Shown here piece after piece: positions 29,837 through 31,296 of a stretch of 47,946 nucleotides of DNA. Source of the stretch: Escherichia phage IdasGreatGrand; the sequence record PP925829.1; one strand, given 5' to 3'. The position numbers were made by a program, and so were the translations under genes. Position 1 is the stretch's first letter. Each line of letters opens with the position of its first letter. The notes beneath the pieces were generated by a model. It was not told the DNA's origin. It saw nothing but the letters and a program-made list of their open reading frames with translations, and ran no database searches.

Positions 29837-30910
29837 ATGGAGAACTTAATGGATACTTTAAAATATGAGAAATTCTCTGATTTTGATCACAATGACCCAT
29901 TTTTTGACTCTTTAAAAAAAGATTATAAAGAGTTTCCTCTTTGGTTAGAAAAAAAAGCCAGAGAAGGAGAATCAGCTTATGTGCTCTATGATGACAAGCA
30001 TAAAATCGAAGGTTTTATGTATCTAAAAGAAAATGATGATGCAAATGACATTAATCCAGCGCTCCCACCAGGACGTCATCTAAAGATAGGAACATTCAAA
30101 TTTGAATCTAAAGGCACCCTTCGCGGACAACGATTTCTAAAAAAAGCGTTTGACCATGCATTTTCATCAAAATCTGATGATATTTATGTTACTGTTTTCG
30201 ACAAACACGTCCATCTAATAAAACTTTTCCAAACGTACGGATTTTACATTCATGGTGAAAAAGAAACACATAACGGGAAAGAGTTTGTATATGCGAGGTC
30301 TTTGCATGAGCCTTATGGTGATATTTTATTAGATTACCCTCGAATAATGACATCAAGAGCCAACAAATATTTACTGGCGATTTATCCCGAATATCACACT
30401 AGACTATTCCCTGATTCAAAACTTGTAAATGAATCACCAGATATTGTCAAAGATATATCCCATGCTAACAGCATTCATAAAATTTACATATGTGGAATGC
30501 GTTCTGTGATGGGAATGAAAAGAGGAGATATCATTGTCATCTATAGAACCGGAGACAAAAAAGGGCCAGCTCGCTATCGTTCTGTAGCCAGTACATTATG
30601 TGTAGTTGAGAGCGTAAAAAATATTTCTGAATTTTTAAGCGAAGATAGTTTTGTAGACTATTGTATTCGTTTTAGCGTATTTTCTGAAGATGAACTCAGA
30701 AAAATCTATAAAGAACGTCGATACCCTTTCATTATAAGATTCACATACAATCTGTCTTTGCCAAAGAGACCCAATCGTGCTATTTTAATAGATCATGTGG
30801 GGCTAAATGGTTCGCGTGCATTCCGATGGAGTCACTTTAAACTCACAAATGAGCAGTTCTTAAAGATCATCGAGTTAGGCAAGATAAATGAAAGTTTTAT
30901 TATCCATTAA
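29837..30910 (+). CDS. hypothetical two-domain protein: GNAT-like N-terminal half, PUA/ASCH-like C-terminal half (inferred)
   Basis: 357 aa; N-terminal motifs resembling GNAT motif A/B (TLRGQRFLKKAF ... HLIKLFQTYGFYIHGE); C-terminal segment KYLLAIYPEYHTRLF parallels the N-terminus of the downstream ASCH protein; AT-rich. Confidence 0.45.
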   Translation: MENLMDTLKYEKFSDFDHNDPFFDSLKKDYKEFPLWLEKKAREGESAYVLYDDKHKIEGFMYLKENDDANDINPALPPGRHLKIGTFKFESKGTLRGQRFLKKAFDHAFSSKSDDIYVTVFDKHVHLIKLFQTYGFYIHGEKETHNGKEFVYARSLHEPYGDILLDYPRIMTSRANKYLLAIYPEYHTRLFPDSKLVNESPDIVKDISHANSIHKIYICGMRSVMGMKRGDIIVIYRTGDKKGPARYRSVASTLCVVESVKNISEFLSEDSFVDYCIRFSVFSEDELRKIYKERRYPFIIRFTYNLSLPKRPNRAILIDHVGLNGSRAFRWSHFKLTNEQFLKIIELGKINESFIIH

Positions 30911-31265
30911 GCCTGAGTTTGCAGAAAAAATATTGAACGGAACAAAGCGGTTCGAGTTTCGTAAAGGTATATTCAAAAATCCGCAAATTAGCACCGTTGT
31001 TATTTATGCCACGATGCCATTAGGTAAAGTTGTTGGTCAATTCCGTATTGAATCAATACTAAGTGACGAACCGGAATCTCTTTGGAAAAAGACGGAAAAA
31101 CACGCAGGTATTTCTAAGCAATTTTATGACTCATATTATTCAGGTAGAGAAAAGGCCTACGCAATAAAAATTGGTGAAGTGGAAAGATATAAAGAACCAA
31201 TTCCTATCTCTGCTCTAGGTAGTAATATTAAGCCACCACAATCATATCTTTACCTACCTGCGTAA
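30888..31265 (+). CDS. ASCH domain protein
   Basis: 125 aa; N-terminus MKVLLSIKPEFAEKILNGTKRFEFRK is a typical ASCH signature; 23-nt overlap with upstream gene. Confidence 0.65.
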   Translation: MKVLLSIKPEFAEKILNGTKRFEFRKGIFKNPQISTVVIYATMPLGKVVGQFRIESILSDEPESLWKKTEKHAGISKQFYDSYYSGREKAYAIKIGEVERYKEPIPISALGSNIKPPQSYLYLPA

Positions 31266-31269
31266 GAAT

Positions 31270-31296
31270 CCCGGCCACCGTGCCGGGTTTTCTTTT
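31270..31296 (+). terminator. rho-independent terminator ending the cI operon
   Basis: Hairpin CCCGGC-caccgt-GCCGGG followed by TTTTCTTTT. Confidence 0.7.

Follow-up and report, generated by a model that had tools for sequence, protein, structure and literature searches.

Prophages of beta- and gamma-proteobacteria commonly carry gene modules in which a GNAT acetyltransferase domain is fused to an EVE domain and which nearly always include an ASCH gene, and these modules have been predicted to be toxin–antitoxin systems (Bell, Wolf & Koonin 2020, PMC7641849). Their first description was credited by these authors to Iyer et al. 2013 (NAR 41:7635), and none of the modules had been experimentally characterised as of then. 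[quoted passage not shown] The present work deals with a two-gene cassette found in a stretch of DNA of 47,946 nucleotides from Escherichia phage IdasGreatGrand (sequence record PP925829.1), which is referred to below as the window. The cassette is composed of gene A, whose product combines a GNAT domain with a PUA-like domain, and gene B, which codes for a small ASCH protein. It is located between the gene of a CI-type repressor and an OL/PL-like region, where phage lambda carries rexA and rexB. This cassette is the catalogued GNAT–EVE + ASCH module, also known as PDC-M11 and as GevT/GevA, and, as such, it is already known. Taking all the evidence as a whole, the best explanation, which is held with moderate confidence, is that a lambdoid phage carries this known module, which is rich in AT, as cargo in its rexAB slot, where it would act as an exclusion module expressed in the lysogen.

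Identity of the Cassette

Both proteins match PDC-M11 models over their full length in PADLOC, a search that had been proposed in the initial annotation of this DNA, made from the sequence without database searches. Protein A aligns through residues 6–356 to positions 10–356 of the 357 positions of PDLC04419 (PDC-M11A; E = 2.1e-133), and the whole of protein B aligns to PDLC04425 (PDC-M11B; E = 6.8e-52). Moreover, the region is 99.8% identical at the DNA level to that of Escherichia phage PhiR47_2 (PV340567.1), which is said to be included in the ECOR temperate-phage panel of Brenes and Laub from 2025. Both proteins are 100% identical to the PhiR47_2 products that carry the GenBank labels 'GevT toxin' (A, XSB42874.1) and 'GevA antitoxin' (B, XSB42873.1). 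Gene order, gene overlap, and location in a gamma-proteobacterial prophage are also those of the described modules. The suggestion of the initial annotation that the pair represents an unrecognised system lacking a name is thus contradicted by the PDC-M11 models, the publications of 2013 and 2020, and the labels in PV340567.1.

Within the wider group, the cassette belongs to a subgroup that differs from other members. Whereas an N-terminal PIN domain and an AAA_17 ATPase partner have been seen elsewhere among the GNAT–EVE modules, this subgroup contains neither, and B is free of the HTH fusion that is present in the HTH–ASCH proteins of other modules. Among the papers accessible to search, Bell et al. 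and the preprint of that paper were the sole sources that use the term 'GNAT-EVE', searches for GevT, GevA, and GevAT returned only unrelated matches, and the DefensePredictor work and a 2026 NAR screen contain no mention of ASCH, GNAT, or Gev.

Protein A Combines a GNAT Fold with a PUA-like Domain

Protein A has two domains: its N-terminal part adopts the GNAT acetyltransferase fold, and its C-terminal part is PUA-like, a type of domain known for binding nucleic acids or modified bases. The search with protein A against Pfam gave no match. The protein does match phrog_6345 (E = 1e-186), and a PHROGs 'acetyltransferase' family covers its residues 8–151 (E = 4e-24), while a profile built from 33 homologues finds the GNAT protein PaiA (1tiq) over residues 4–146 (E = 1.9e-5). 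The acetyl-CoA-binding loop is partly kept, with G97, R99, K102, and K103 being invariant.

The nearest sequence-level relatives of this GNAT domain are spermidine acetyltransferases of the PaiA/SpeG type, and the RefSeq name of the protein is 'N-acetyltransferase'. Both facts would suit an ordinary N-acetyltransferase acting on small molecules or proteins (polyamines, antibiotics, or metabolites) that happens to be adjacent to an unrelated ASCH gene. However, the PaiA/SpeG matches are weak, both in the profile comparison given above and in NCBIfam, where the match (E = 0.016) scores far below the cut-off. Moreover, the fusion of the GNAT domain to the PUA-like domain is invariant, as is the ASCH gene that comes next with an overlap, and the pair travels as prophage cargo and not in a metabolic operon. 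An ordinary acetyltransferase is, accordingly, regarded as highly improbable.

Protein A shares the GNAT fold and the arrangement in a two-gene module with the toxins TacT, AtaT, KacT, and ItaT, but it differs from them in its additional PUA-like domain of 190 residues. Furthermore, the type II GNAT systems TacAT, AtaRT, and KacAT encode an RHH/DUF1778 antitoxin upstream, whereas in this cassette the presumed toxin gene comes first and the ASCH partner is encoded downstream. A specific relation between A and the toxins of the TacT/AtaT type was looked for and was not found.

The C-terminal domain of A is a PUA-like domain at the border between ASCH and EVE, and its structure does not choose between these two names. 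It contains the stretch KRGDIIVIYRT, which we take to resemble the EVE signature. The best structural match of this putative reader domain is the ZmASCH structure 5guq, which is also the closest solved relative of protein B, while a profile search of the PDB with the C-terminal domain returned a single chance match to OCRL-1 (E = 0.022). The likeness between the C-terminal domain of A and protein B relies on structural similarity to this one PDB entry and does not involve a claim of paralogy. When the two are compared directly with hhalign, only the first 30 columns align (E = 2.8e-4, probability 41%), and forcing them into a global alignment gives nothing meaningful. In published work, C-terminal domains of this type are termed EVE (Bell et al. 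2020, PMC7641849).

Regarding the beginning of gene A, a GGAG Shine–Dalgarno sequence is positioned between ATG 29837 and ATG 29849. Most of the 120 listed homologues have lengths of 348–357 amino acids, and the closest among those listed have 353. Because of the position of GGAG and the lengths of the homologues, the true start is probably ATG 29849, which would give a protein of 353 amino acids. The GenBank record of PhiR47_2 and the initial annotation both place the start at ATG 29837.

Protein B Is a Small ASCH Protein Related to ZmASCH

Protein B matches the Pfam ASCH family above the gathering score (E = 2.5e-8), and its profile matches ZmASCH over the full length (residues 4–123, E = 6e-18). 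ZmASCH (ZMO0922, PDB 5guq) is a Mg-dependent ribonuclease that binds nucleic acids, single-stranded RNA included, and cleaves single-stranded RNA in vitro, an activity known from this protein only, and its nucleic-acid cleft includes residues Y47, T49, R32, Y90, Q127, and S128 (Kim et al. 2017, PMC5615036). These residues align, in the same order, with Y40, T42, R25, Y83, Q118, and S119 of protein B, all of which are invariant among 28 homologues. The motif G18-x-K20-x-x-E23-x-R25 is likewise invariant. Judged by its sequence, B can be classed with ZmASCH as a small ASCH protein and has conserved residues of a nucleic-acid-binding cleft.

There are also differences between the two proteins. 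Lysine K53 of ZmASCH corresponds to G46 in B, where the adjacent lysine 47 is not invariant, and W15 corresponds to K8. The genomic setting differs as well, since the ZmASCH gene is solitary among housekeeping genes in Zymomonas, without a GNAT–EVE neighbour. The possibility that it forms part of a Gev-like operon was discarded, given that tblastn detected no A homologue within 5 kb and the neighbours are unrelated. One open reading frame (ORF) downstream of the ZmASCH gene reads like secA.

Another relative of interest is YqfB, the N4-acetylcytidine (ac4C) amidohydrolase of E. coli (PMC6972931), which has the ASCH fold in common with B, together with the Lys and Arg residues of the motif G-x-K-x-x-[T/E]-x-R. 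[quoted passage not shown] However, while K20 and R25 are present in B, the position of the essential nucleophile Thr24 of YqfB is occupied by the invariant Glu23, and the profile of B matches neither of the YqfB structures 1te7 and 9kyf at E ≤ 1. A role for B as an ac4C amidohydrolase of the YqfB type is rejected on these grounds. Thus, the idea of an 'ac4C eraser', raised in the initial annotation, is weakened, while the ASCH assignment of the 125-residue protein in that annotation agrees with Pfam and with the ZmASCH comparison. In the same way, the profile and structure comparisons confirm its description of A as a protein with a GNAT-like N-terminal half and a PUA/ASCH-like C-terminal half.

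Organization of the Repressor Operon and Comparison with Lambda

The features of the locus are compiled in Table 1. Genes A and B overlap by 23 nucleotides, with the start codon of B lying inside the 3' end of A. In the product of the upstream gene, Pfam identifies HTH_3 (E = 5.5e-13) together with Peptidase_S24 (E = 1.2e-18), and the protein is, therefore, assigned to the CI-type repressors. Most likely, cI is the first gene of an operon whose transcription also includes A and B, and a terminator scan detected no terminator-like site in the gap of 68 nucleotides between cI and A. The terminator that follows the pair begins 5 nucleotides past the stop codon of B and is formed by a hairpin with 6 G–C pairs (CCCGGC-loop-GCCGGG) and a T-run (TTTTCTTTTG). 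Beyond it, several words of the intergenic region between cro and cI that resemble operators recur at positions 31390..31470, namely ACAACCATTT, GTCAACAAC/GTTGTTGAC, and TTAAAACTAT, and ATAGTTTTAA is likewise common to the OL/PL-like region and that intergenic region. A promoter can be read in the OL/PL-like region as TTGACG-17-TTAAAT. On the same strand downstream, the annotation of PhiR47_2 shows Kil, gam, bet, and exo, followed by xis and int. The A–B pair has a GC content of 35.1%, whereas cI reaches 46.7% and the window as a whole 49.4%, and Rfam contains no match in or near the cassette.

Table 1. Coordinates of the A–B cassette and of the features around it in the window.
Feature	Positions	Strand	Remarks
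ORF A (GevT-like, PDC-M11A)	29837..30910	+	357 aa from ATG 29837; likelier 353 aa from ATG 29849
ORF B (GevA-like, PDC-M11B)	30888..31265	+	125 aa, stand-alone ASCH protein
CI-type repressor gene	29079..29768	+	229 aa; HTH_3 + Peptidase_S24; annotated cI in PhiR47_2
cro-like ORF	28744..28974	-	divergent from cI
GNAT acetyltransferase domain of A	29858..30301	+	about aa 8-155
PUA-like (EVE/ASCH-border) domain of A	30329..30907	+	about aa 165-357
Intrinsic terminator	31270..31297	+	hairpin 31270..31287 then TTTTCTTTTG; closes the cI-A-B unit
OL/PL-like operator and promoter region	31390..31475	+	operator-like words common with cro/cI intergenic region

The ORFs, their coordinates, their AT-richness, and their position after a CI-like repressor had all been described in this way in the initial annotation, and the ORF list, the GC values, and Pfam support them. 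The strong terminator and the OL/pL-like region that it had placed past the pair are likewise recovered, as the hairpin with its T-run and as the shared operator-like words, respectively. In the interval of approximately 270 nucleotides between the terminator and the annotated kil gene (window 31297-31565), and between the PL-like promoter and the kil, gam, bet, and exo genes, no ORF was seen in the position of lambda N. The antitermination arrangement of this phage may, hence, differ from that of lambda.

The same slot, after cI and before the terminator and OL/PL, holds in lambda the two-gene cassette rexA–rexB, and co-transcription with the repressor gene is presumed here by analogy. The gene products differ: RexAB is composed of a sensor plus a membrane protein, whereas A and B show soluble, enzyme-like folds. 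A PADLOC scan of both proteins at E ≤ 1 returned only PDC-M11 models and no homology to RexAB.

The position of the genes also bears on the possibility that the module modifies nucleic acids for the benefit of the phage itself. In such a case, A would acetylate modified bases of DNA or RNA recognized by its EVE-like domain, for instance to evade host restriction, and B would be a helper or regulator and not an antidote. Acetylation of DNA bases was predicted by Iyer et al. 2013, while Bell et al. suggested phage protection against RM systems and described HTH–ASCH fusions in other members that suggest DNA binding (PMC7641849). However, A and B belong to a repressor operon that is active in the lysogen and not to an early lytic operon, and the GenBank submitters labelled their products as toxin and antitoxin, so self-serving modification is considered quite unlikely. 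For comparison, the anti-restriction gene ral of lambda is located in the early lytic operon.

Conservation, Distribution, and Mobility of the Pair

Gene B is found directly after gene A in 79 of 80 related IMG/VR loci, at identities of 54–100% and with the start/stop overlap kept. The remaining locus lies on a contig that breaks off within A, and, consequently, the pair is present in all 79 complete loci. The pairing of A and B is beyond chance, and the conservation in other prophages that the initial annotation had proposed to check is clearly observed in these viral loci. In total numbers, 1631 clusters at 90% identity match A and 2443 match B. Among 5426 complete E. coli genomes, 275 have the exact allele (≥99% identity), each as a single chromosomal copy, and these include O157:H7 strains and the uropathogenic E. 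coli (UPEC) strain 536. The exact protein sequences are present on at least 1000 contigs, where they are named only 'N-acetyltransferase' and 'ASCH domain-containing protein'.

The pair appears in diverse contexts. Besides CI-type repressors, the genes that precede it include a repressor of another kind in further lambdoid phages and, in one phage that is more distant, an S24 repressor. It is also found beside an integrase and on contigs of Vibrio with a gene for a Zot-like protein. This shows that A and B travel together from one prophage backbone to another. In turn, sibling phages with closely related cI/cro regions carry other contents between cI and kil, namely HipA/HipD, a lipoprotein, or three hypothetical genes, or have the slot empty. 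Because of this differing cargo, the cI–kil slot is considered a cargo hotspot, as the comparison of the locus with the rexAB slot in the initial annotation had anticipated.

One of the Vibrio contigs with a Zot-like gene (L074) encodes a P-loop protein of 171 amino acids (GVHGVGKST; 7441-7956, plus strand) after A–B. This protein may be the AAA_17-type partner that has been reported for some GNAT–EVE operons.

The same distribution is compatible with a toxin–antitoxin pair that merely stabilizes the prophage or element that carries it, that is, an addiction module that gives no protection against other phages. Such a function would fit the presence of A–B in very different mobile elements, including the inovirus-like Vibrio contigs and the integrase-adjacent island, as well as the tight coupling of the two genes. 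Moreover, the work of Bell et al. presents such a pair as a toxin–antitoxin system and not as proven defence (PMC7641849), and copies with an inactivated toxin gene keep an intact B: in three loci A is disrupted and B is intact, while the reverse was found in none. However, addiction alone does not account well for the location in the classical exclusion slot of rexAB, where siblings carry other toxin–antitoxin-like or candidate cargo, nor for the relatives of the family that are embedded in RM, BREX, and DISARM systems. A lambdoid prophage integrated in the chromosome would, in addition, have little use for post-segregational killing. Addiction alone is, thus, regarded as the less likely reading.

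The three disrupted copies of A are of different kinds: locus L020 (5029-6096) shows an internal stop near residue 300, L051 (about 5990-7061) an N-terminal frameshift, and L069 (6001-7071) a stop at the invariant W36.

Proposed Mechanism of Exclusion and Its Assessment

The most likely function of the cassette is that of a toxin–antitoxin-like exclusion module expressed in the lysogen, whose toxicity, target, and role in defence we infer. In the mechanism proposed, A and B would be transcribed together with cI in lysogens, by analogy with rexAB in lambda, and translational coupling through the overlap of the two genes would fix the proportion of the two proteins. A would be the harmful partner, with its PUA-like domain guiding the GNAT domain to RNA or, less likely, to DNA, where it would acetylate the targeted nucleic acid or something attached to it. 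As for the catalytic details, RNA or nucleotides may be the substrate of acetylation. B would restrain A, either by binding to it or by occupying the same nucleic-acid ligand. Since ZmASCH 5guq is the closest match both to B and to the reader domain of A, competition for the ligand is as plausible as direct sequestration. A superinfecting phage would upset the balance between A and B and set A free, and the cell would then stop supporting phage growth, resulting in exclusion or abortive infection.

A more specific variant, which could be described as 'reader against reader', is tentative and rather unlikely. According to it, the EVE/ASCH-like domain of GevT would pick a modified or specific nucleotide in RNA or DNA whose base or sugar, and not an aminoacyl-tRNA as with the known GNAT toxins, would be acetylated by the GNAT domain, while GevA would compete for the ligand or cleave it instead of sequestering GevT. 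Phage exclusion would then have an arm based on the acetylation of nucleic acids.

The interpretation of the pair as toxin-like and antitoxin-like, already put forward in the initial annotation, agrees with the predictions of Bell et al. 2020 and with the GenBank labels, whereas toxicity and neutralization as such are presumed. Several points weigh against the exclusion function. Firstly, the names 'toxin' and 'antitoxin' derive from a GenBank label, PDC-M11 has the status of a candidate and not of a validated system, and a search of the accessible literature found no experiment on this pair. Secondly, catalysis by A is not guaranteed. The tyrosine of the GNAT motif 'Y-x-x-x-G-F', which is often the general acid, is matched in the PaiA alignment by F131, and the GNAT domain of A has no specific tie to the known tRNA-acetylating toxins. 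Thirdly, a promoter scan of the region gave 6 promoter-like sites compared with 8.4 in shuffled sequence, that is, no excess, and, therefore, the operon structure rests on the missing terminator and the analogy with lambda. An internal promoter for B, as an analogue of lambda PLIT, was considered at 30758-30786 and 30876-30903, and no claim is made for these sites, whose frequency is not above that in shuffled sequence. Finally, the asymmetry of 3:0 in the decay of the two genes, which might be taken as a sign of a toxin, does not reach significance, given that gene A has roughly three times the length of gene B.

Other Features of the Window

The window contains further regions of low GC content. 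Just past the integrase, positions 37432-39896 of the plus strand hold a second AT-rich cassette of two genes (37% GC), which code for an ATPase of 525 amino acids and an HNH-like protein of 296 amino acids. This cassette matches Septu PtuA (E = 1e-184) as well as the PADLOC models PDC-M01A (E = 2e-201) and PDC-M01B (E = 6e-113), and the phage probably carries it as further cargo for defence. On the minus strand, a region of low GC at 24260-24442 contains, according to Rfam, the C4 antisense RNA (72.7 bits) beside the Hfq-binding RNA isrK (60.7 bits). Where the GC content of the window is lowest (31-34%), an ORF of 246 amino acids lies at 17817-18557 on the minus strand. It adjoins the lysis genes and has no PADLOC match. 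By eye, its C-terminal part resembles a putative AraC-type regulator.

Significance of the Module

The analysis amounts to the rediscovery of a catalogued and named module, identical in its proteins to that of PhiR47_2, and not to the discovery of a new system. Nevertheless, the cassette is common, as its exact allele is carried by about 5% of complete E. coli genomes, and it sits in the best-known exclusion slot of prophages. If the proposed mechanism is true, the acetylation of a nucleic acid through a PUA-like reader would constitute a new chemistry for bacterial immunity. Moreover, it would provide a defined role for the ASCH proteins, whose family is large and has been little understood.

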